Part shown: positions 3,788-48,811 of the stretch, piece after piece
Layout: the number at the start of each line of letters is the position of its first letter
Numbering within the stretch: the first letter of the stretch is position 1
DNA from: Verrucomicrobiia bacterium
GTDB taxonomy: Bacteria > Omnitrophota > Omnitrophia > Omnitrophales > Aquincolibacteriaceae
Assembly (NCBI GenBank): GCA_035495615.1
Contig: DATJFP010000083.1
Coordinates: forward strand, 23,803-87,802
Direction: 5' to 3'
DNA length: 64,000 nt
Notes under the pieces: generated by a model
Database searches by the model: none
What the model saw: the letters and a program-made list of their open reading frames with translations, nothing else
What the model was told of the DNA's origin: nothing
Made by a program: the position numbers and the translations under genes

Positions 3788-4633
3788 ATGACAACCACGA
3801 GCAAAACCTCTTTCAATCTGAACTGGCTTTTCCTGGCGGCCGCGGCAGCGCTGCTTGTCTGGACCTTTACGCCTTCGTTTCTTTGGATGGTGGACCGCTG
3901 GAAAGCGCCCGATTCCTATTTCGCGCACGGCTTTCTCATCCCGCTGGTCACCGCGTACTGGATTTGGGAAAAACGCGCCACGCTTGCGGCCACGGAACTG
4001 AAGTCCAGCGCCTGGGGTCTTCCGTTTCTCATTGTTGCCGCGCTCATGCAGATTTTCGCCGCGATCATGCGCGTTTATTTTCTGTCGTGCTTTTCGTTCG
4101 TGATCTGCCTGTTCGGCATTTCGCTTGCCGCCGCGGGCACGAAATTCACGCGGCAAATCGCGTTTCCTCTTTTCTTTCTTTTCCTCATGGTGCCGCTGCC
4201 GCTGCTCGTCGTTTCGGAAACGACGCTCAGGATGAAATTCTTCGTGACAGAACTCGCGACCACGTGCCTGAACGCGATCGGATTCAAGGCGTACCGCAAC
4301 GGAAGTTATCTGGTCATGCCGAACTCTTTTCTTTTGGTAGGCGATCCGTGCAGCGGACTGCGTTCTTTCCTCGCGTTTCTTTGCCTCGGGTTTGTTTTTG
4401 CGTACGGCGGTAAAACGAAGTGGTGGGGGAAAGCGATCCTGATTTTCGCGGGACTGCCGCTGGCGATTTTCTCCAACTTATTGAGGGTTTTTGGGTTGGC
4501 GCTGATCGCAGAGATCTACGGCCAGGAAGCCGTGCACGGAAAAATTCACGACGCTTCAGGCTTTGTCGTGTTCGTCATCGCGTTCGCGCTGTTCATGCTG
4601 ATCCGCCGTCAACTGGAGGCCGCGCGTGCTTAA
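3788..4633 (+). CDS. exosortase (XrtA/EpsH-like transpeptidase)
   Basis: Polytopic membrane protein with the conserved exosortase Cys motif GDPCSGLRS and the N-x-x-R motif (SNLLRV). ATG at 3788 chosen over the upstream TTG at 3752. 8-nt overlap with the EpsI-like ORF. Confidence 0.85.
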   Translation: MTTTSKTSFNLNWLFLAAAAALLVWTFTPSFLWMVDRWKAPDSYFAHGFLIPLVTAYWIWEKRATLAATELKSSAWGLPFLIVAALMQIFAAIMRVYFLSCFSFVICLFGISLAAAGTKFTRQIAFPLFFLFLMVPLPLLVVSETTLRMKFFVTELATTCLNAIGFKAYRNGSYLVMPNSFLLVGDPCSGLRSFLAFLCLGFVFAYGGKTKWWGKAILIFAGLPLAIFSNLLRVFGLALIAEIYGQEAVHGKIHDASGFVVFVIAFALFMLIRRQLEAARA

Positions 4634-5255
4634 AAACGGAAAAGCCTTTCTCCTGGTTTTGATTTATCTCGGAGCCTTATCCGCGTTCCGCCTCACGCCG
4701 CCCGCGGCATTCAGCATTTCAGCCTCGATGAGCCCGTTCTTCCAGACTTTTCCGAAAGAGATCGGCGCGTGGAAAGGCGAGGACACGCCGCCGGATCAGA
4801 GGACGCTCGAAATTCTCGAAACGCGCAACGTGCTGTCGCGGAATTATCAGAACGCGGAAGGCAAGAAGCTTCATCTTTTGCTCGTCAGTTCCGAAAAAGA
4901 CCGCCGCGTCGCGCATCCTCCGGAAGTCTGCTACCTCGGAGCGAATTTCAACATCGTCGACGACGTGGAATCCAAATTTTCTACTCCTGAAACGGGGACG
5001 ATCGGCATCCGGCAGTTCCGGGCCGTGAACGAGCGTCATCCCGACGACCAGCAGCAAGTTCTTTATCTTTATAAAATCGGGAATCGTTTCACCACGAATT
5101 ATTACGCCCAGCAGCTCCAGTTTGCCCTGGACCGGATCTCCCGCAAGGAAACGGAAGTCATGCTTATCCGCCTCGCGGGGGCTGATGCCCAGGACCTCAA
5201 GGCCTTTCTCCAGGATCTCCTGCCCTATCTGACCGGGGCTCGCCAGCCCGCCTGA
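4626..5255 (+). CDS. epsI: exosortase-associated EpsI-family protein
   Basis: About 200 aa, N-terminal signal/TM. GTG start overlaps the exosortase stop (gcgcGTGcTTAA). Its position and size match the EpsI proteins that accompany XrtA-type exosortases. Confidence 0.65.
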   Translation: MLKNGKAFLLVLIYLGALSAFRLTPPAAFSISASMSPFFQTFPKEIGAWKGEDTPPDQRTLEILETRNVLSRNYQNAEGKKLHLLLVSSEKDRRVAHPPEVCYLGANFNIVDDVESKFSTPETGTIGIRQFRAVNERHPDDQQQVLYLYKIGNRFTTNYYAQQLQFALDRISRKETEVMLIRLAGADAQDLKAFLQDLLPYLTGARQPA

Positions 5256-5286
5256 CGTTCAAAATAACCGTCGGTTGAATTTTTTT

Positions 5287-5308
5287 ATTTCCCCTACGGA
5301 TTTCCCCT
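5287..5308 (+). repeat. direct repeat ATTTCCCCT x2 (13-bp phase)
   Basis: atttcccct at 5287-5295 and again at 5300-5308. Confidence 0.6.
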
Positions 5309-5333
5309 GACAATTGCTGTAAGATATTTCATT

Positions 5334-5362
5334 ACATTGGGTTATAAATAGTAACATTGGGT
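5334..5362 (+). repeat. direct repeat ACATTGGGT x2 spaced 20 bp (two helical turns)
   Basis: acattgggt at 5334-5342 and 5354-5362. Candidate paired binding sites for a regulator. Confidence 0.6.
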
Positions 5363-5525
5363 GAAAAAGAAGCACACGGAAATATTATCACAACTCTTTT
5401 AAATGATTAGAGTTACGATTGAAGGCGGGGAATGTGTTGTTTATTTTGAACAAACGATTCGCAAAAGTAACATAAGCATCTTTTAAAGGGCTTTCGGGCT
5501 TTTCTTAAACCCTTTTAAAATATAG

Positions 5526-5535
5526 GGTTATAACC
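5526..5535. repeat. perfect 10-bp palindrome GGTTATAACC
   Basis: ggttataacc at 5526-5535. GGGTTATAA also occurs at 5339-5347. Confidence 0.55.
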
Positions 5536-5564
5536 ACTACATCCGGGCCCTCTTTTTTCTTACT

Positions 5565-5580
5565 TGGCACAGATCGTGCT
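5565..5580 (+). promoter_or_regulatory. candidate sigma-54 (-24/-12) promoter TGGCAC-N5-gTGCT upstream of the sugar transferase
   Basis: TGGCACagatcgTGCT has correct GG...GC spacing and lies about 80 bp upstream of the ATG at 5659. A sigma-54-dependent regulator is encoded in the same locus. Confidence 0.45.
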
Positions 5581-5658
5581 TAAGACACCATGAAACGTGG
5601 ACTACGTCCTCATGGCATTCAAATTTATACCAATTCTTGCAAAGGCGGAATTTAAACA

Positions 5659-6390
5659 ATGAACGTCACTTTCCAGGAAATTAAAAACAACCTGATGCGC
5701 GACTATATGCTGCGCCGTTACCACAAAATCTCGAAAGGGGAGGTCCCCATCGAGGAAAAGGCCCTGGAAGTTCTGACCCGGTCGTACGTGGAGTTGACCA
5801 CGTCCTGGCGCATTTTTGTCAAGAGAGCCCTGGATTTGACGGTTTCGATCGTCGGTCTTGCGGTGTGCTCGCCGATCATGCTGTTGATCGCGATCTGGAT
5901 TAAGCTCGATTCCCGGGGCCCGATTTTTTACAGCCAGGAACGCGTCGGCCAGAAGGGCAAGACCTTCCGCATTTACAAGTTCCGCAGCATGCGTCAGGAC
6001 GCGGAAATCAAAAGTGGTCCGGTCTGGGCCGTCGAAAACGACCCGCGCGTTACCAAGCTCGGCCACTTTCTCCGCACCACGCACCTGGATGAAATCCCTC
6101 AGTTTTTCAACGTCCTCAAAGGCGAGATGAGCCTTGTCGGCCCGCGCCCCGAACGCCCGCATTTCGTCAAGGAACTGCGCGCGCAGATCCCGCATTATGA
6201 CAAGCGTCATTTTGCGAAGCCTGGCGTGACCGGCCTTGCGCAGATTCGCCAACGTTATGACAGCAGCATTGAGGACGTGAAGAAAAAAGTTCGATATGAC
6301 GTGTTGTATATCAAAAAGATGTGCCCGCTTCTCGACATCAAAGTGATCGCCCTTACGGCGCTCACCGTGATCTTGAGGACTGGCAGATAA
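5659..6390 (+). CDS. exopolysaccharide priming sugar transferase (polyprenyl glycosyl-phosphotransferase, bacterial sugar transferase family)
   Basis: Strong match to the WbaP/WcaJ/EpsE C-terminal domain: KRALDL...GPIFYSQERVG..GK.F.IYKFRSM...DE.PQFFNVLKGEMSLVGPRPERP. SD-like AAGGCGGA precedes the ATG. Confidence 0.85.
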   Translation: MNVTFQEIKNNLMRDYMLRRYHKISKGEVPIEEKALEVLTRSYVELTTSWRIFVKRALDLTVSIVGLAVCSPIMLLIAIWIKLDSRGPIFYSQERVGQKGKTFRIYKFRSMRQDAEIKSGPVWAVENDPRVTKLGHFLRTTHLDEIPQFFNVLKGEMSLVGPRPERPHFVKELRAQIPHYDKRHFAKPGVTGLAQIRQRYDSSIEDVKKKVRYDVLYIKKMCPLLDIKVIALTALTVILRTGR

Positions 6391-6452
6391 CAAACGAAAC
6401 AATCCTCGCGGGTTTTTCGTTAACTACTAAAGAAAGGAGCAAGAAATAGCAT

Positions 6453-7157
6453 ATGAAAAAGACTGCTGGATTACTAGCGATGATCGCCGGCGTGCTCATG
6501 ATGGGCATGTCGAGCGCTTACGCGGTTCCGGTCATCAATGGCGCCATCGCGCCGGCTACCGAATGGAATAACACGGGATATAACTACTATCTCAATGTTA
6601 GCGACGTTAACGAAGCGTTGATTCCCGATCAGTACGACATTAAGAATGTCACGCTGCTTCAGGAAATCGAAGGCTTTGGATTCGGTGATAGCAATGCGGC
6701 CAACGATGGTATCTATTTGCTGGTCGAAACTTATGCAGCCCCGTCTTTTGTTGACGAAACTCTGGGGGGACCGAAAGTCACGGTTTTCCTGGATGCCGAT
6801 TTCAACAATGACGGCATCATCGATTTCTCGATGGAACACACGGCGAATGCTAACGGTACTGGTCAAAAGGTCACCGTTACCTTCAACGTGTTTGGTCCTA
6901 CGGGAGATCTAGTGACGAATGGGGGTTCGTTTTCGACCGGGAGCGTGATTGAATATTACATTCCTCACGGCCCGTTCAATACCCCGAATGCCCCGTTCCC
7001 GATTTCGTTCGTGGGTTATATCACGTACGATAACGGCGGATTGTCTCCGGATGATAACGTCACCGGCGGCCCGCTGGTGTTCGTTCCTGAACCTAGCACG
7101 ATGCTGCTTTTTGGTGGTGCTCTGCTCGGAATGATCGGGCTGCGTTTTAAAAAGTAA
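6453..7157 (+). CDS. secreted PEP-CTERM sorting-domain protein
   Basis: Signal peptide MKKTAGLLAMIAGVLMMGMSSAYA. C-terminal VPEPSTMLLFGGALLGMIGLRFKK (PEP motif, TM, basic tail). Strong RBS AAGGAG. Five N-x-S/T sequons. Confidence 0.85.
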   Translation: MKKTAGLLAMIAGVLMMGMSSAYAVPVINGAIAPATEWNNTGYNYYLNVSDVNEALIPDQYDIKNVTLLQEIEGFGFGDSNAANDGIYLLVETYAAPSFVDETLGGPKVTVFLDADFNNDGIIDFSMEHTANANGTGQKVTVTFNVFGPTGDLVTNGGSFSTGSVIEYYIPHGPFNTPNAPFPISFVGYITYDNGGLSPDDNVTGGPLVFVPEPSTMLLFGGALLGMIGLRFKK

Positions 7158-7210
7158 TTCTTGAATAGTTTGCTGTAAGTCATATTATAGCTAGCTATTT
7201 CGAGGCTCCT

Positions 7211-7246
7211 AACCCTGGCCCCTTGCAAGAGGGGCCAGGGTTTATT
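7211..7246 (+). terminator. rho-independent terminator after the first PEP-CTERM gene
   Basis: aaCCCTGGCCCCttgcaagagGGGGCCAGGGttt. The 10-bp GC stem is followed by a T-run. Confidence 0.7.
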
Positions 7247-7300
7247 GCGCGAAATCTAGCGGAAAGAGAGTGTGGACTAAGTTTTATTCAAGCCAACGCT

Positions 7301-8104
7301 ATGCTGAAAAAAATCTCCCAACTGCACAGAGAAGCATTGTCCGTCATCGCGAAGAATCCGATGATCATGCTTCTTTTTTTGTTTTTGGCGGTTGCGGAAG
7401 CCTTGGCGTTGACGACTTTGTTCCTTGCTCACTCCGCGCCGTTCTCGAAGATTTTTGCGCCCATCATCCGGCGCTTCTGGGGAGACCGGTTTCTTCATTA
7501 CCCGGATAACTTTCTTCTTCTGCCTAAGCTTTACGGTTATGCCAATGCTGCCATTCTTACCGTCGTCGGCCTCTTAGTCAGCGGTATTACTATTAAATTA
7601 ATAGAAGCTGCGGTGCTTCATACCGGCGTTTCGACGCTTACCGCGGCGCAATCGTCCTTTCAGAAGTATTTCGGGCTTTTGGCGGTTTGGATCCCGGCTT
7701 TTCTCATCATGCGGTACGGCACGAGTTTCCTGATGCCGCATATCCCGCATTCGCTGCCCGCGGAATTTATGGTCATCTTACTCATGTTTGTGGTCATCCA
7801 GGCGATCACGGCTTTTTTGTTTACGGCAGTCATGACTTCGAAAAACGGATTTTTCAAGGCACTCGTGGAAGGCTTTGGGACTTTGAAGGAACAGGGAGGC
7901 GTTTTGATCGGGGCGATTTTTATCCCGTGCGTCATCGGCGTCGCGCTTTCTTTTCTTAAATCGACGGCGCCGTCTTTTGTAAGGTTTTATCCGGAAAGCG
8001 TTCTTTTGATTTTGTATTCCGGCATTTTTATCACGATGGTCATCGACCTCTATGTTACATCGGTCTCGACCATACTCTATCTAAAGGCGAGGAATAAAGT
8101 ATGA
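7301..8104 (+). CDS. hypothetical polytopic membrane protein (unknown family)
   Basis: At least 6 predicted TM helices. ATG 7301 chosen because the track's 7223 start would include the terminator hairpin; no clear SD, so start is uncertain. Stop overlaps the next ATG (ATGA at 8101). Confidence 0.55.
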   Translation: MLKKISQLHREALSVIAKNPMIMLLFLFLAVAEALALTTLFLAHSAPFSKIFAPIIRRFWGDRFLHYPDNFLLLPKLYGYANAAILTVVGLLVSGITIKLIEAAVLHTGVSTLTAAQSSFQKYFGLLAVWIPAFLIMRYGTSFLMPHIPHSLPAEFMVILLMFVVIQAITAFLFTAVMTSKNGFFKALVEGFGTLKEQGGVLIGAIFIPCVIGVALSFLKSTAPSFVRFYPESVLLILYSGIFITMVIDLYVTSVSTILYLKARNKV

Positions 8105-8817
8105 AAAGCATAAAAACCTTTTTGGTTTTATCGTTGTGCTTGACCCTTCCCGCGTGGGGCGTTCATGCCGCGGTGCCCGAGATCCAGGGCGTTATGGCCA
8201 ATTTCACTCCGGCCAATGTGGCTCCTGAAAATCCCAGCGTCGACTGGCACGATTTCCAGATGACCGTGGATCCGCCGGTTTTGGTGGATTCTAAGCTCAT
8301 GGAAGCGCTTTTTCCGTCCACGCAGGACTTGGACCTTGAGCACGCGTCCATCGAAGATCTTACGGAAGACGAGATGGAAACGTCGCTTCAGGACCAGCTC
8401 ATCCTTGGCGAGACCCATGGCTTCTGGTCTCGGACCAAGACGTGGCTTGTCGGTGGCTTGCTTCTGACGGCGCTCATCACGGGGCTTCTGGTCCTGTTTT
8501 CGTCCGGCTCCGGCAGCGGTTCCGGCAGTGGTTCCGGTTCCGGCGGCGGCGACAGCAATAACAGCGGCGGACCCGGCGGTGCTGGGGGCGGCGGTGGTGT
8601 TGGTGGAGCAGGTGCCGGGGGTGCTGGCGGTTCCGGCGGCACGGGCGGTACGGGGGGTACTGGCGGCGCCGGTGGCGGCGGTGGTGGTGGAAACGGCGGC
8701 GGTGTGGGTGCTACGGATTTCAACGGTAATTATCCGAGCAATCCCGAGCCTTCCACGATGTTGCTCCTCGGATTGGGACTGATGCTTTTTACCTTCAAGC
8801 GGAAAGCCCAGGCCTAA
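8101..8817 (+). CDS. PEP-CTERM protein with (SG)n / poly-Gly low-complexity linker
   Basis: Signal peptide, acidic domain, hydrophobic segment, then SGSGSGSGSGSGSG plus G-rich run. C-terminal NPEPSTMLLLGLGLMLFTFKRKAQA (PEP-CTERM). Confidence 0.8.
   Translation: MKSIKTFLVLSLCLTLPAWGVHAAVPEIQGVMANFTPANVAPENPSVDWHDFQMTVDPPVLVDSKLMEALFPSTQDLDLEHASIEDLTEDEMETSLQDQLILGETHGFWSRTKTWLVGGLLLTALITGLLVLFSSGSGSGSGSGSGSGGGDSNNSGGPGGAGGGGGVGGAGAGGAGGSGGTGGTGGTGGAGGGGGGGNGGGVGATDFNGNYPSNPEPSTMLLLGLGLMLFTFKRKAQA
8500..8712 (+). repeat. GGC/GGT/AGC-rich coding microsatellite-like tract (Ser-Gly / poly-Gly)
   Basis: tccggctccggcagcggttccggcagtggttccggttccggcggcggc... encodes residues about 134-204 of the PEP-CTERM protein. 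Confidence 0.7.
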
Positions 8818-8829
8818 AAGGATTTTACG

Positions 8830-10239
8830 ATGCGCGTGAGAAATGCCCTTTATTTTCTGGCGTTGAGCGTGGCGCTCAGCGGGTGCAGCAGGAGTTATCT
8901 GGCCGAGAAAGAATTTTTCAAGGCCAAGAAAACCCTGGAGAGCATCAAGCTGTCCGCGCCCGTAGAAGCCCTGGAAGAGCCGATTGCCGCGTTTCAACAC
9001 GTGGTTGATCGTTTTCCCGGCACGCCCAAAGCCATGGAGAGCCTGATTGCCATCTCCAACCTCCGGCTCAAGCAGAAGAAGTACTCGGAGGCGCGGGATG
9101 CCATGAAGACCATCGTGGAAGATTACAGCGCCGATAAGGACCGGGTCGCCGAAGCCCGCGACCGTATCGGGCAGATCTACCAGGCTGAAGGGAATTGGGA
9201 CGCCGCGCAGAAAGCCTACTGGGAAGCCGCGGAGTACAATCCGCTGCACGTGCGCGGGCTATACGCGCCCATCAAGATCCTGCTTCATTACAAGCAGGCG
9301 AAAGATGACAAAGGTTTCGAACAGCAGTTTGTCCGCGTGCTCGATCATTACCAGGGCCTGATCAAGCAGCTCGGCCCCATCGATACAGCCGCTCCCGTCA
9401 AAAATTATTTGGCCATGGCATACATGGTGAAAGGCGACACGCAGCCTGCCGTGGACACCTGGGAAGCCCTTTACCGCGAGCATCACGAAAACGGCTATGC
9501 GCCTATGGCCCTTTTGGCTGCCGCGGAATTGCGCTGGCGTGAAGACAATCTCGCCGAAGCGGAACGTTTGTGGGGGCTGTACTTCAAGGATTACCCGAAC
9601 CACGGGCTTGCCGGAAAAACCTCGGTGACGATCGGCATGCTCTACCAGGGCAAAAAAGATTTTACAAAAAGCCGCGGCTGGTACAACAAGGCCCTCGAGC
9701 AGTATTTCAAAGGCAAGTCGCTCGAGCGGAGCGAAGTTGAGCTGCTCATGGCTAAGTCCTATCAGGACGAGGGGAATTGGGAGCAGGCAGACACGCTCTA
9801 CAAGCAGCTTGAGCAGGACTATCCGAACACTTCGCCGTCCCTCCAGGTCCCGCTTTTGCGCGCAGAGCACTTCCGTGAAGCCGGGGATACGGAACAATCG
9901 AACAAGATCCTGGGTGAAGCGATTCTGGTTTACCAGGGCCTTGAAACCGAGAATCCGGACGAAAACGTCCGTAAAATTGCGACCCGCTTTAAGACGGCTG
10001 CATATGCCCAACTCGGAGCCTGGCAGGACATGATCAAAGAAATCGAAGGTCAGATGGCGCAGGAGACTCAGCCGGAAAAAAAGGGGCGCTGGCTTTTCCT
10101 CAAGGCGCTGCTTACCGAGAATCGCCTTAAAGACCATGGCGCCGCGATTCAGCTTTACGAAAATTTCCTCAAAGATTATCCCGAACATCCGCTTTCTTCC
10201 CGCGCTAAGGCCCAGCTCGACGCCTTGAAGCAAGCCTAA
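8830..10239 (+). CDS. TPR-repeat lipoprotein (possibly a short PrsT-like PEP-CTERM-system lipoprotein)
   Basis: Lipobox LSGC after a signal peptide. Multiple TPR-like helical repeats (AYMVKGDTQPAVDTWEALYRE, AKSYQDEGNWEQADTLYKQL, etc.). Confidence 0.7.
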   Translation: MRVRNALYFLALSVALSGCSRSYLAEKEFFKAKKTLESIKLSAPVEALEEPIAAFQHVVDRFPGTPKAMESLIAISNLRLKQKKYSEARDAMKTIVEDYSADKDRVAEARDRIGQIYQAEGNWDAAQKAYWEAAEYNPLHVRGLYAPIKILLHYKQAKDDKGFEQQFVRVLDHYQGLIKQLGPIDTAAPVKNYLAMAYMVKGDTQPAVDTWEALYREHHENGYAPMALLAAAELRWREDNLAEAERLWGLYFKDYPNHGLAGKTSVTIGMLYQGKKDFTKSRGWYNKALEQYFKGKSLERSEVELLMAKSYQDEGNWEQADTLYKQLEQDYPNTSPSLQVPLLRAEHFREAGDTEQSNKILGEAILVYQGLETENPDENVRKIATRFKTAAYAQLGAWQDMIKEIEGQMAQETQPEKKGRWLFLKALLTENRLKDHGAAIQLYENFLKDYPEHPLSSRAKAQLDALKQA

Positions 10240-10439
10240 AACCCACGATTCTTTCCTTTCGTTTTCCCGCAAGGCCATCAAATTGTAAAAACGCCTTGCG
10301 CGTCCTGCTTTTTCAACAATTTTCCTCTGGGAGGTATGGCTCACCCGTGATCAATTTGGAGCAACAAAGGGCAATAAGGATATTATTATATCGTGTTGAA
10401 TTAAAATGACTTAGAGAAAATTTTTTTAAACACTTTCTA

Positions 10440-10467
10440 TTGACCCGCCGGGACCTTGTGATATACT
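10440..10467 (+). promoter_or_regulatory. sigma-70-like promoter TTGACC-N16-TATACT upstream of the histidine kinase/response regulator pair
   Basis: ttgacc at 10440-10445 and tatact at 10462-10467, about 60 bp upstream of the ATG at 10528. Confidence 0.45.
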
Positions 10468-10493
10468 TCCGTCATCTTTGGGGCGGCATTTCG

Positions 10494-10503
10494 ACAGCTG
10501 TCC
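10494..10503. repeat. perfect palindrome GACAGCTGTC in the 5' leader of the kinase gene
   Basis: gacagctgtc at 10494-10503, roughly 27 bp downstream of the -10. Shares a TGTCCA half-site with the inverted repeat upstream of the exosortase. Confidence 0.5.
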
Positions 10504-10527
10504 AAATTTAAAGACATCCCGGATCTC

Positions 10528-11787
10528 ATGAAATCAAGCTTGTCCCAAAACCCCAGTGCCGGCGCTTCTTCCACCGGCGTTCTCCCGCTCAATCCTGAGC
10601 CTCACTTCTTTGCAAGCCCGGACAACTTCATCGAATTCGCGCTGGATTCGGTCCTGGCCCTCGTTCAGGCGCATGCAGGATCGCTCATGCTATGGGACGA
10701 AGAAAAGAAGGCCTTGGTTCTGAAGTCCGCCCGCGGGCCTTATTGCGACAGGGTCCGTGACGCGCATATCCGGCTCCGCGAAGGCGTGGCGGGGTGGGTG
10801 GGTGACAAGGGCCGCAGCGTCCTGGTTAAAGACATTCACGACGACAGCCAATTCAGCCATTACCGCCGGGCCGGCAATTATGAAACGCATTCCTTCATGT
10901 CCATTCCGCTGATCTCTTCGAACAAGCTCGTCGGCGTTATCAACATCACGGAGCGGGCCAATTTTGATGCCTTTACTGAAGATGACATGGTGCGCGCGCG
11001 GCTTTTCGCACAGCACATCGCGATTGCTTACGACAACATGCGGCTTGCCAGCCGGTTCCGCGTGGAAAATCAGCGTTTGAGCGAAAAAGTCGTCATCCTC
11101 GAGCAGACCCTCGAACGACAGGAGCCGCTGGTCTCGATCGGAAAACTTGCATCGAATCTCGCCCATGAGCTCAACAATCCCTTGGACTCCATACGCCGTT
11201 ACGTGAATCTGGCGCTCGAGCAGGTGATGGAAGATTCGCTGGCGCGGCAGTACATCATGAAATCCAAGGAAGGCATCCGCCGCGCCATCCAGGTCATCCG
11301 CGGGCTTCTTCAGTATTCCCGGCACGCCGCGAAAATGGAATTGCGCGAGTCCGAACTCCATCAGGTGCTGCGCAAAAGCCTCGAAGGCGTTTCCCACGAC
11401 GATAATTTCGAAGGCGTCCACGTGCGGCTGGAGCTGGCGCCGGAAGAGTGCGTCGTGCCGGACTGCGGCCTCGCTGTTGTTTTTCGGAATCTTTTCAAGA
11501 ACGCGTACCAGGCCATGAAAGGCCGCGGCACGCTGAAAATCTCGACTTCCATTTTTGATACCACGATTACCGTCAAGATCCAGGATTCGGGCTGCGGCGT
11601 TCCGGACGCGGTTAAAACGCGCCTGTTCGAGCCGTTCTTTTCCACCAAGCAGGGAGAAGGAACCGGTATCGGCCTGGCCATTTCCCGCGAGATCGTCGAA
11701 AAGTGCGGCGGCAGCATCCAATTCGAAAGCATGCCCGAAATCGGCACGACGTTTATCATTCACTTACCCCTCTTAAGGAGAGCCTAA
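10528..11787 (+). CDS. soluble GAF-domain sensor histidine kinase
   Basis: No TM segments. GAF-like N-terminal region, HisKA H-box (LAHELNNPL), HATPase_c G-boxes (DSGCGVP, GEGTGIGL). Confidence 0.8.
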   Translation: MKSSLSQNPSAGASSTGVLPLNPEPHFFASPDNFIEFALDSVLALVQAHAGSLMLWDEEKKALVLKSARGPYCDRVRDAHIRLREGVAGWVGDKGRSVLVKDIHDDSQFSHYRRAGNYETHSFMSIPLISSNKLVGVINITERANFDAFTEDDMVRARLFAQHIAIAYDNMRLASRFRVENQRLSEKVVILEQTLERQEPLVSIGKLASNLAHELNNPLDSIRRYVNLALEQVMEDSLARQYIMKSKEGIRRAIQVIRGLLQYSRHAAKMELRESELHQVLRKSLEGVSHDDNFEGVHVRLELAPEECVVPDCGLAVVFRNLFKNAYQAMKGRGTLKISTSIFDTTITVKIQDSGCGVPDAVKTRLFEPFFSTKQGEGTGIGLAISREIVEKCGGSIQFESMPEIGTTFIIHLPLLRRA

Positions 11788-11793
11788 AATCCC

Positions 11794-13158
<1,365 letters not shown>

Positions 13159-45309: not shown

Positions 45310-46680
45310 ATGTCGCTCTATGCCAAAATCCTGATTGTTGACGATGAGAAAAACGTGCGGGACGGGCTCCGGCAATTCCTGGAAGGCCTGGACTACGAAG
45401 TTTTTTGTGCCGGGGACGGGGAAGAGGGCTTTGAGCTTTACCGCCGCGAAAAACCGGATCTCGTGCTGACCGACATCCGCATGCCGAAGATGGACGGCGT
45501 TTCCCTGCTCGAAAAAATCAAAAACGAGAACCCCGGCGCTTCCGTTATCCTTCTCACCGCCTATGGAACCGTGGAAGACGCGGTCAGGGCCATGAAAAAG
45601 GGCGCCTACTATTATCTTACCAAACCCACGAACCTCGAAGAGCTGGAACTCCTGGTTAAAAAGGCGCTGCTCAGCCAGAATCTCGAGGAAGAAAACCGGG
45701 AATTGAAAGAGGCGCTCTTCAAGCAGAAATTCGAGACCGGAGAAATCCTGGCCCGCTCTCAGGTCATGAAGGACGTCCTGAAAACTGCGGATCAGATCGC
45801 GCAATCGTCCGCCACGGTCCTGATCGAAGGCGAAAGCGGCACGGGCAAGGAACTCATCGCGCACCGCATCCATCAGGAGAGCAACCGCAGCCAGCAGCCC
45901 TTCGTGGCCGTGCATTGCGCGGCCTTGACGCAGTCGCTTCTGACAAGCGAGCTCTTCGGCCATGAAAAAGGGGCATTTACCGGCGCCGTCGACCGCAAGG
46001 TCGGACGTTTCGAGAAGGCCCACATGGGAACATTGTTCCTGGATGAAATCGGCGAGCTTTCCCAGGAAACGCAGGTGAAGCTCCTGCGCGTGCTCCAGGA
46101 AAGAGAATTCGAGCGGGTAGGCAGCACCAAGACCATCAAGGTGGATGTGCGCCTCATCTGCGCGACCAATAAAAATCTTCTCGAAGAAGTCCGGGCCGGA
46201 CGTTTCCGCGAAGACCTCTATTACCGCATCAACGTTATCTATCTGAAAATGCCGCCGCTGCGGGACAGACCGGAGGACATTCCCGCCCTGGTGGAAGACT
46301 TCATCAAACATTTTGCGCGGCTCAACGGCAAAAAGGTGTCGGGAATCGACGCCGAGGCGCTCAATTATCTGAAGCAATACAACTGGCCCGGCAACGTCCG
46401 TGAATTAAAAAATATCGTGGAGCGCATGGTGGTGTTGACCCAGGAAGAACAGCTTCGCGCTTCGCTGGTGCCCGAAGACATCCGCCAGAAACGCGCGGTC
46501 ACGGCGGCGGCATCCATGCCTTCTTTCGCGCCCGGCGGCAATCAGCAGCTTCAAGACATGGAGCGGGAATTCATCAAGGCCAAGCTCGAAGAAAGCGCAG
46601 GCAACAAGTCTCTGGCAGCCAAGAAATTGGGGATTTCCCGCCGGACGCTCTACCGTAAGATCGAAGAATACAAGCTCTGA
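45310..46680 (+). CDS. sigma-54-dependent response regulator (NtrC/AtoC family)
   Basis: REC (ILIVDDE...D55), AAA+ sigma-54 activator (GESGTGKE, GAFTGA), C-terminal HTH (SRRTLYRKIEEY). Confidence 0.9.
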   Translation: MSLYAKILIVDDEKNVRDGLRQFLEGLDYEVFCAGDGEEGFELYRREKPDLVLTDIRMPKMDGVSLLEKIKNENPGASVILLTAYGTVEDAVRAMKKGAYYYLTKPTNLEELELLVKKALLSQNLEEENRELKEALFKQKFETGEILARSQVMKDVLKTADQIAQSSATVLIEGESGTGKELIAHRIHQESNRSQQPFVAVHCAALTQSLLTSELFGHEKGAFTGAVDRKVGRFEKAHMGTLFLDEIGELSQETQVKLLRVLQEREFERVGSTKTIKVDVRLICATNKNLLEEVRAGRFREDLYYRINVIYLKMPPLRDRPEDIPALVEDFIKHFARLNGKKVSGIDAEALNYLKQYNWPGNVRELKNIVERMVVLTQEEQLRASLVPEDIRQKRAVTAAASMPSFAPGGNQQLQDMEREFIKAKLEESAGNKSLAAKKLGISRRTLYRKIEEYKL

Positions 46681-46810: not shown

Positions 46811-46826
46811 TGGCACGGGAATTGAA
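46811..46826 (+). promoter_or_regulatory. candidate sigma-54-type promoter TGGCACG-N4-TTGAA upstream of dnaK
   Basis: tggcacgggaattgaa lies 54-69 bp upstream of the dnaK ATG. The -24 element is perfect; the -12 element has A in place of the conserved C. No CIRCE element seen. Confidence 0.3.
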
Positions 46827-46879: not shown

Positions 46880-48811
46880 ATGCCTAAAATCTTAGGAATC
46901 GACCTTGGAACCACCAATTCGTGCATGGCCATCATGGAAGGCGGAGAGCCCAAAGTGATTGCCAACGTCGAAGGAAACCGCACCACGCCTTCCGTCGTAG
47001 GCTTTACGAAGACGGGAGAACGGCTCGTCGGCCAGGCGGCCAAGCGGCAAGCCGTGACGAATCCGGAAAACACGGTCTTCAGCGCCAAGCGTTTCATCGG
47101 ACGCCGGCAGGAAGAAACCGGGCAGGAAGCCGCGCACGTTCCTTTTAAAATCAAAGCCGGCAAACACGGGGAAGCCGTCATCGGCATTCCCGCGCAGAAC
47201 CGCGATTTTACGCCGCCGGAAATTTCTGCCATGGTGCTTCAGAAATTGAAAGCCGATGCGGAAGCTTATCTCGGCGAGCCGATTAAGCAGGCCGTGATCA
47301 CGGTCCCTGCCTATTTCAACGACTCCCAGCGCCAAGCCACTAAAGACGCGGGGCAGATCGCGGGCCTTGAAGTTCTTCGCATCATCAATGAGCCCACGGC
47401 CGCGGCCTTGGCTTACGGCCTGGACAAAAAGAAAGACGAAACCATCGCCGTGTACGACTTGGGCGGAGGTACGTTCGATATTTCCATTCTGGAAATCGGC
47501 GACGGCGTCTTCGAAGTCAAAGCCACCAACGGCGACACGCATCTGGGCGGCGACGACTTCGACCAGAAGATCATGGAATGGATGATCGCCGAGTTCAAGA
47601 AGAACGAAGGCATTGACCTTTCGAAGGACCGGATGGCCGTGCAGCGCTTGAAAGAAGCGGCGGAAAAGGCCAAGTGCGAATTGTCCACCGCGCAGTCTTC
47701 TGAAATCAACCTGCCATTTGTCACCGCGGACGCCAATGGGCCGAAGCACCTGCTGCTGACGCTCACGCGGGCCAAGCTGGAACAGCTTGTCGGCGAGCTG
47801 ATCGAGCGCACGGCCTCGCCCTGCCTGGCCGCTATGAAAGACGCCGGGGTTAGCGCCAGTGATATTGATGAAGTCATCCTGGTTGGCGGACAGACGAGAA
47901 TGCCGGCCGTCGTCGAAAAAGTACGTAAGCTTTTCAGCAAGGAGCCGCATCAGGGCGTGAACCCTGACGAAGTCGTGGCTGTTGGCGCTGCGATTCAGGG
48001 CGGCGTGCTGCAGGGGGACGTGAAAGACGTGCTCCTGCTCGACGTGACCCCGCTTTCGCTCGGCATCGAAACGCTGGGCGGCGTCATGACCAAACTGATC
48101 GAGCGTAACACGACGATTCCCGCCAAGAAGTCGGAAATCTTTTCCACCGCGGGGGACAATCAAACGGCGGTTACCGTGAAAGTCCTCCAGGGGGAACGCG
48201 AGATGGCGGGGGATAACCGTCTCCTGGGCCTTTTCAATCTCGAAGGTCTTCCTCCGGCTCCCCGGGGCGTGCCGCAGATCGAGGTCACGTTCGACATCGA
48301 TGCCAACGGCATCGTGAATGTGTCGGCCAAGGACCTTGGAACGGGCAAAGAGCAGAAGATCCGGATCGAATCCTCGTCCGGTCTTTCGAAGGATGAAGTC
48401 GAAAAGCTGGTGAAGGAAGCGTCAACGCACGCGGACGAAGACAAGAAAAAGCACGAAGTCATCACCGCGCGCAACCAGCTCGACAGCCTGGTCTATGCCA
48501 GCGAAAAGAGCCTGAAGGAACACGGCGACAAGGTGAGCGCCGAAGAGCGGCAGAAAGTGGAAGACGCCCTCAAGCAGGCGAAAGAAGCGCTGGCCGGCGA
48601 CCAGGTCGATAAGATCCAGGAAGCCACGCAGAAGTTGACCAGTGCCTCCCACACGATCGCCCAGAAGATGTATGAGGCTTCGTCCCAAAAGGCGCAGGGC
48701 CAGCCCAGCGCTTCCGCCGGCGCGCAGCAAGGCGCGGGCGGCAAAGGCGAGGACGTCGTGGATGCCGATTACGAAGTCGTCGACGAAGAGGCTAAGGAAA
48801 AAAAGAAGTAA
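46880..48811 (+). CDS. dnaK: molecular chaperone DnaK (Hsp70)
   Basis: [32 protein letters not shown]-terminal acidic EEVD-like tail. RBS AAAAGGAG. Confidence 0.97.

Follow-up and report, generated by a model that had tools for sequence, protein, structure and literature searches.

A conserved putative sigma-54 promoter and a candidate enhancer in the intergenic region ahead of an exosortase-linked priming sugar transferase gene

The window analysed here is a single stretch of 64,000 nucleotides, to which all coordinates refer unless a contig is named. Positions 5256-5658 (+ strand) constitute an AT-rich intergenic control region, which is situated between epsI (4626-5255) and a gene for a priming sugar transferase (5659-6390, +) belonging to the short-form polyprenyl-phosphate sugar transferases. 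The GC fraction of this region is 0.36, as against 0.53-0.56 in its flanks, and no ORF of at least 60 amino acids lies wholly inside it, the largest contained ORFs being of 40 amino acids or less. Both aspects agree with an original prediction, made from the DNA alone, that had described the region as AT-rich and non-coding, and direct reading of positions 4900-6000 also recovered each of the motifs that it had listed there. Its statement that this is the only long non-coding stretch of the locus has to be modified: 5256-5658 is the longest such stretch, but there is also an AT-rich gap of 288 bp at 10240-10527.

The genes that follow on the + strand are likely to form an operon extending over 5659-10239, as suggested by their NCBIfam and Pfam matches, intergene gaps of at most 65 bp and conserved gene order. 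With the transferase as its first gene, this operon would comprise a PEP-CTERM protein (6453-7157), a membrane protein (7223-8104), a Gly-rich PEP-CTERM protein (8101-8817) and, as the last gene, a TPR protein (8830-10239), all encoded on the + strand, and a PEP-CTERM tail could be read in both of the proteins so named. A long Gly/Ser low-complexity tract in the second of these gives rise to a GC spike of 0.71 at 8400-8700. Exosortase and EpsI are encoded immediately upstream of the region, so that a promoter within it would serve PEP-CTERM genes adjoining an EPS locus with exosortase and EpsI. No terminator was detected after epsI, and hence read-through from the upstream operon may contribute to transcription too. 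Beyond the operon lie, again on the + strand, a gene for a histidine kinase with GAF, HisKA and HATPase_c domains (10528-11787) and a gene for a response regulator of the sigma-54 activator type (11794-13158), which combines Response_reg, Sigma54_activat (PF00158, 230 bits), AAA lid and HTH_8 domains. Inside the 288-bp gap ahead of the kinase gene we noted a sigma-70-like TTGACC-N17-TATACT at 10440-10468, which suggests that transcription of the regulator pair does not depend on that of the presumed target operon.

Syntenic loci were collected through a protein search and contig look-ups (L082, L085, L088, L090, L093, L095, L097 and L098), and an additional lineage (L102) was obtained from a metagenome scan with N-terminal alignment. 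The transferases of these orthologous loci are 60–79% identical, and the loci share a common order of exosortase, EpsI, gap, transferase, PEP-CTERM protein, two unannotated proteins, TPR protein, GAF histidine kinase, sigma-54 response regulator and phosphoglycerate kinase. The gap ahead of the transferase is retained in all of them, with a length of 348-495 bp. In one lineage (L093 and L094) epsI is separated from the gap by an insert of two genes (236-1346 in L093, 1745-2855 in L094), which encode a GT2 glycosyltransferase and a cupin of the mannose-6-phosphate isomerase-like type; here too the gap is found next to the transferase. The intergenic DNA as a whole is barely alignable among the orthologous loci, and sequence conservation is limited to short boxes of the DNA type. 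The region itself has an identical copy in a JGI metagenome contig (L081). Given that copies of the same lineage from different samples are identical, no population-level footprint could be derived from them. A scan of representative genomes with the transferase returned only relatives of at most 59% identity, all of them non-syntenic, and these were used as negative controls.

The best sigma-54 match of the entire 64-kb window falls within the region, as the -24/-12 element TGGCACagatcGTGCT at 5565-5580 (+). As the criterion for such promoters we used a GG and a GC exactly 10 bp apart in a TGGCAC-N5-TTGCW context. The sequence TGGCACAGATCGTGCT at this position places the GG at 5566-67 and the GC at 5578-79, corresponds to the consensus at 10 of 11 positions (1 mismatch), and has its GC 79 nt ahead of the transferase ATG at 5659. 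When the gap was shuffled, an equally good match was seen in 8 of 5000 cases (0.16%). Loose matches in the window, on the other hand, number 18 against 28.8 in shuffles, which is below the shuffle mean. This total, together with the ease with which short repeats and palindromes arise in AT-rich DNA, would fit a region that is merely a non-functional spacer or a gene-transfer seam in which the sigma-54 match is coincidental. We consider such an explanation exceedingly improbable in the light of the orthologous loci: a TGGCAY-N5-nTGCW box agreeing with the consensus at 9-10 of 11 positions is present in all ten orthologous lineages, with its GC 56-83 nt before the ATG, while the chance of finding such a box is 0.1–2% per lineage. 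In each locus it is the highest-scoring sigma-54 match. Ten independent lineages have retained the position of the box while the remaining spacer diverged, and a change of the upstream genes leaves the region attached to the transferase. We also compared 70 transferase loci of greater divergence, and found a nearby box with 10-11 of 11 consensus positions in 5 of 5 loci from Omnitrophota as compared to 3 of the 65 others. A coincidental match is contradicted by this distribution, by the shuffles and by the conservation across lineages alike.

The box at 5565-5580 is intergenic, lies on the sense strand at a short leader distance and is conserved in the orthologues. This comparative evidence argues strongly that it would function as a sigma-54 promoter. 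The original prediction had placed a -24/-12 match about 80 bp upstream of the transferase, and the distance has turned out to be conserved in every orthologous locus. As per the standard geometry of sigma-54 promoters, transcription is predicted to start at 5590-5592 (+), about 12 nt past the GC element. Ahead of the transferase we observed a Shine-Dalgarno sequence, AGGCGGA, at 5643-5649 (+), 9 nt before the ATG, and a motif of the AAGGnGG type is seen in most orthologues. A scan for sigma-70 promoters yielded nothing convincing, the single weak candidate being at chance level. The 64-kb window contains no other copies of the control module. It encodes no RpoN-box peptide, and a genomic rpoN is an assumption of the model presented below.

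At the start of the predicted 5' leader lies the palindrome CCATGA..GGACTACGTCC..TCATGG (5588-5615, +), which had been pointed out in the original prediction. The sequence is indeed there and can form a small hairpin, but this is a weak feature, neither significant in comparison with shuffled sequences nor conserved: the leader of the window folds at -13.9 kcal/mol (z = -0.63), and the z-scores of the orthologous leaders range from -0.6 to +1.2 (nine leaders). A small RNA had also been suggested, with a covariance-model scan as the means of checking it. Control of the operon by an RNA element encoded here, be it a small RNA, a riboswitch or some other structured leader, could be argued from the length of the gap, from this hairpin and from the small hairpins that occur early in several orthologous leaders. 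We nevertheless hold this to be very improbable, given that a search of the whole window with Rfam 15 gave zero matches at the gathering threshold and that, with E-values up to 10 admitted for the region, only the narK RNA was drawn in, at E = 2.2 and aligned to the sigma-54 box itself. Folding of the region shows no excess of structure over shuffled sequences on either of the two strands (z = -0.68 and -1.22), nor does that of any of the nine leaders, and the conservation is restricted to short boxes typical of DNA elements.

Upstream of the promoter we found an inverted repeat, TGTTGTTTATTTTGAACA, of the form TGT-N12-ACA, which occupies 5435-5452, at a distance of 130 bp from the -24 box, and was absent from the motif list of the original prediction. 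When the orthologous regions were anchored on the promoter, 7 lineages proved to have a TGT-N12-ACA with its start between -130 and -138, namely 6 of the 9 first analysed and L102, in which it starts at -130; L098 has it at -167. Near variants are a version with an 11-bp spacer (N11) in L085 and CGT-N12-ACA at -133 in L093, and the nine regions first analysed contain no further N12 occurrences. Against a background density of 1-2 per 10 kb, the chance of such a pattern in 7 of 9 regions within a 46-nt span would be about 5e-12, a figure that has to be discounted as the pattern was picked after inspection. Most of the information of the site resides in its six defining bases. The same pattern is found upstream of the promoter in 4 loci from Omnitrophota. 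The core of the site (5441-5451) recurs in inverted form, as a perfect copy of 11 nt (GTTCAAAATAA), at the distal end of the region (5257-5267), though the significance of this copy is modest. The recognition helix of the response regulator is invariant across six aligned orthologues, and this favours an invariant site such as TGT-N12-ACA over repeats that vary between lineages. We regard the element at 5435-5452 as the best candidate for an enhancer (UAS) in the region, and as a better one than the repeats that had been listed for it.

Those repeats are two pairs of 9-mers on the + strand, both exact: ATTTCCCCT at 5287-5295 and 5300-5308 (spanning 5287-5308), 13 bp from start to start, and ACATTGGGT at 5334-5342 and 5354-5362 (spanning 5334-5362), 20 bp apart. 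Under a first-order Markov model the probability of at least two exact 9-mer repeats within 25 bp is about 0.002, and the original prediction had proposed the repeats as activator or IHF sites. In the specific form of this proposal one or both pairs would be the primary activator sites, with the palindrome GGTTATAACC or other AT-rich DNA as a bending site for IHF. Beyond the unusual presence of two local repeats, several features fit such a role. The 20-bp spacing puts the two ACATTGGGT copies on the same face of the helix; each copy includes ACAT, a half-site core that is enriched across the orthologous regions; the first copy also forms the right arm of a TGTAA-N9-TTACA at 5318-5336; and the ATTTCCCCT pair, though specific to the window, aligns where five orthologues have phased ATGTCC arrays (the ATGTCC / ATTGTTCC region). 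Still, we deem it unlikely that these are the primary sites. Neither 9-mer occurs in any orthologue, despite the invariant recognition helix of the regulator, or in the rest of the 64-kb window, and both pairs lie 210-280 bp from the promoter, farther than the conserved TGT-N12-ACA. No relative between 79% and 100% transferase identity was available for testing the two repeats, and L081 is identical. The palindrome GGTTATAACC (5526-5535) is a perfect one of 10 bp, but 0.67 such palindromes are expected by chance and, like the two 9-mers, it is not conserved in the orthologous loci; it is probably incidental and carries no weight. Likewise, no IHF consensus with one mismatch or less was found in the region, where 0.9 would be expected by chance. 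The window-specific ACATTGGGT and ATTTCCCCT repeats may at most be diverged, lineage-specific auxiliary sites.

An unbiased k-mer enrichment test across the orthologous regions drew out ATGTCC (z = 8.5), TAAGTC (z = 7.3) and ACAT/ATGT (53 against 27 expected). ATGTCC occurs as arrays of 2-4 copies, exclusively on the forward strand and with an exact 10-bp spacing, in five lineages (L082, L090, L095, L097 and L098), 236-310 bp upstream of the -24 box, and amounts to 16 copies where 2.7 are expected. Closer to the promoter, a box at -59 is distinguished by its positional conservation: it reads TAAACC in the window (5506-5511, +) and TAAGTY in the orthologues, and is found at the exact position in the window, L082, L085, L088 and L102 and nearby in L095 and L097. 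A spacing of direct repeats by one helical turn is typical of winged-helix regulators and not of Fis-type dimers. The geometry of the arrays, as well as a conserved -59 box to which no factor is assigned, would be consistent with a second factor, such as a repressor, an anti-activator or an architectural protein, that acts on the distal part and modulates the promoter. Such a factor is compatible with an enhancer-plus-promoter function of the region, but we consider it a tentative and somewhat doubtful possibility. In three array-bearing lineages ATGTCC doubles as the left arm of the TGT-N12-ACA site, so that the arrays could be extra half-sites for the same activator, and the locus has no conserved candidate gene for a second regulator. 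Neither ATGTCC nor TAAGTC is present in the region of the window, and its enhancer may hence work somewhat differently. In two loci from Omnitrophota we observed arrays of TTGTC at -122 to -88, with 10- and 21-bp steps in L007 and irregular steps in L002.

The pair of kinase and response regulator genes is syntenic in every orthologous contig of sufficient length. An activator gene of this type was found only in loci bearing the promoter, all control loci being devoid of it; in 3 promoter-bearing loci from Omnitrophota no activator gene was found inside the retrieved flanks. The link that had been drawn from the region to the regulator encoded 6 kb downstream is supported both by this conserved synteny and by the co-occurrence of promoter and activator gene, and the pair at 10528-13158 is a candidate for the cognate regulators of the promoter. 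The description of the regulator as PrsR-like stands in so far as it is a response regulator of the NtrC family. Its score with the PrsR model (TIGR02915), 421.7 bits, does not reach the equivalog cut-off of 502.6, and the partners do not correspond to PrsK and PrsT: the kinase scores 88.2 bits with PrsK (TIGR02916; cut-off 300) and the TPR protein 25.5 bits with PrsT (TIGR02917; cut-off 312.2). With the AtoC model the regulator obtains 487 bits, above its PrsR score yet under the AtoC cut-off, and its homologues are named in the sources only as generic sigma-54 regulators.

The syntenic position of the regulator and its Sigma54_activat domain identify it as a sigma-54 activator, though its contact loop departs from the usual form. 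GAFTGA is the canonical and near-invariant loop contacting sigma-54. The regulator of the window has GAFTSA instead (12430-12470), as do those of L085, L088 and L090-L092, whereas that of L093 has GSFTSA. A serine is found at the loop position concerned in about 85 of the 120 closest homologues of the regulator, and T, N or H also occur there. None of the papers searched mentions 'GAFTSA'.

In several respects the arrangement recalls classical enhancer-dependent sigma-54 promoters of the NtrC/NifA type, in which the UAS of NifA has the form TGT-N10-ACA. Like these, it combines a GG/GC promoter with an inverted repeat with TGT and ACA arms about 100–150 bp upstream, and with an activator made up of receiver, AAA+ and Fis-type HTH domains. 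It differs from them in the spacer of the repeat, which is of 12 bp (N11 in one lineage) rather than the 10 bp of a NifA site, in the lack of an IHF consensus between the enhancer candidate and the promoter, and in the GAFTSA loop of the activator in place of GAFTGA.

A second point of comparison is provided by the PEP-CTERM genes of Proteobacteria, for which a survey described large intergenic regions with two motifs (Haft et al. 2006, PMC1569441). The first is a 17-mer with TTTACA as its end; a spacer of ~63 nt (32-92 nt) separates it from a downstream sigma-54 box, which in turn precedes the start codon by ~71 nt. The same survey tied this system to PrsK, PrsR and PrsT and stated that the DNA motifs had been seen in Proteobacteria only, and RpoN dependence has been shown experimentally for the PEP-CTERM gene pepA in Aquincola (PMC9850573). 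Common to the proteobacterial and the present arrangement are a long intergenic region before genes for exosortase cargo, the succession of an activator motif and a sigma-54 box, a similar distance of this box from the start codon (about 71 nt there and 79 nt here), and loci that encode an exosortase, EpsI, a TPR protein, a histidine kinase and an NtrC-type response regulator. The differences are equally clear. The host here belongs to Verrucomicrobiae, whereas the motif of the 2006 survey was seen in Proteobacteria only; the regulator, the kinase and the TPR protein are all under the cut-offs for PrsR, PrsK and PrsT, and the kinase has a GAF domain instead of the PrsK architecture. The upstream motif is a TGT-N12-ACA that ends ~112 nt from the box, and not the TTTACA 17-mer, neither TTTACA nor TGTAAA being present in 5256-5658. 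Furthermore, the first gene after the promoter is here that of the priming transferase, followed by the PEP-CTERM genes, in contrast to the single PEP-CTERM gene there. Given that the regulator scores, the first motif, the spacer length and the taxon all fail to correspond, the region is, as judged by these likenesses and differences, an analogue of the proteobacterial PEP-CTERM box/Prs system and not a member of it.

Taking the comparative evidence as a whole, we believe that 5256-5658 is probably the enhancer-plus-promoter region of a sigma-54-dependent operon. Sigma-54 RNA polymerase would bind TGGCAC-N5-GTGCT at 5565-5580 as a closed complex. An ATP-driven activator would be required to open the promoter, the best candidate being the NtrC-family response regulator at 11794-13158, which the neighbouring GAF histidine kinase would phosphorylate. 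As its putative target the activator would have the upstream element TGT-N12-ACA (5435-5452), an inverted repeat from which it would reach the promoter, ~130 bp away, by DNA looping. The transcript would start near 5591, giving a leader of ~68 nt, and is predicted to run through the genes for the priming sugar transferase, the two PEP-CTERM proteins, which are exosortase cargo, the membrane protein and the TPR protein.

Beyond the single locus, the orthologues raise the prospect of an enhancer module new to description and spread over Verrucomicrobiota and Omnitrophota as a counterpart to the PEP-CTERM box of Proteobacteria, for which we would put the chances at about even. Its four elements would be the promoter, a TGT-N12-ACA ~130 bp upstream, the -59 box and ATGTCC arrays, and a GAF kinase would operate it together with an activator of the GAFTSA clade; the ATGTCC half-sites would lie far upstream, one helical turn apart, and in the window the ATTTCCCCT repeats would replace them. 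If such a module exists, sigma-54 control of exosortase cargo and of EPS priming would be much older or more widespread than the view of 2006, limited to Proteobacteria, implied. Sigma-54 control of exosortase/PEP-CTERM systems had previously been described and tested in Proteobacteria only, and we found no paper joining Verrucomicrobia, sigma-54 and exosortase. The same logic now appears to operate in uncultured Verrucomicrobiae and Omnitrophota, with other regulator families and another enhancer motif. The advance is an incremental one, since the mechanism envisaged is that of textbook enhancer-dependent transcription. At the same time, 5435-5452 and 5565-5580 offer a testable set of cis-elements for the switching of matrix production in little-known bacteria of soil and water.

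Two further observations concern sigma-54-like elements in other gene contexts. In the loci L002, L007, L009 and L027 from Omnitrophota (at about 5655-5900) the promoter stands directly before a gene for a small signal-peptide protein and not before the transferase; the gene behind the promoter adjoins that of the transferase. In the window itself the second-best sigma-54-like match is TGGCACGGGAATTGAA at 46811-46826, which has a defective -12 element, with GA for GC. It is located 53 nt ahead of a dnaK-like ORF (46880-48811) and just downstream of the gene for the second activator of the window (45310-46680), which has the canonical GAFTGA loop.
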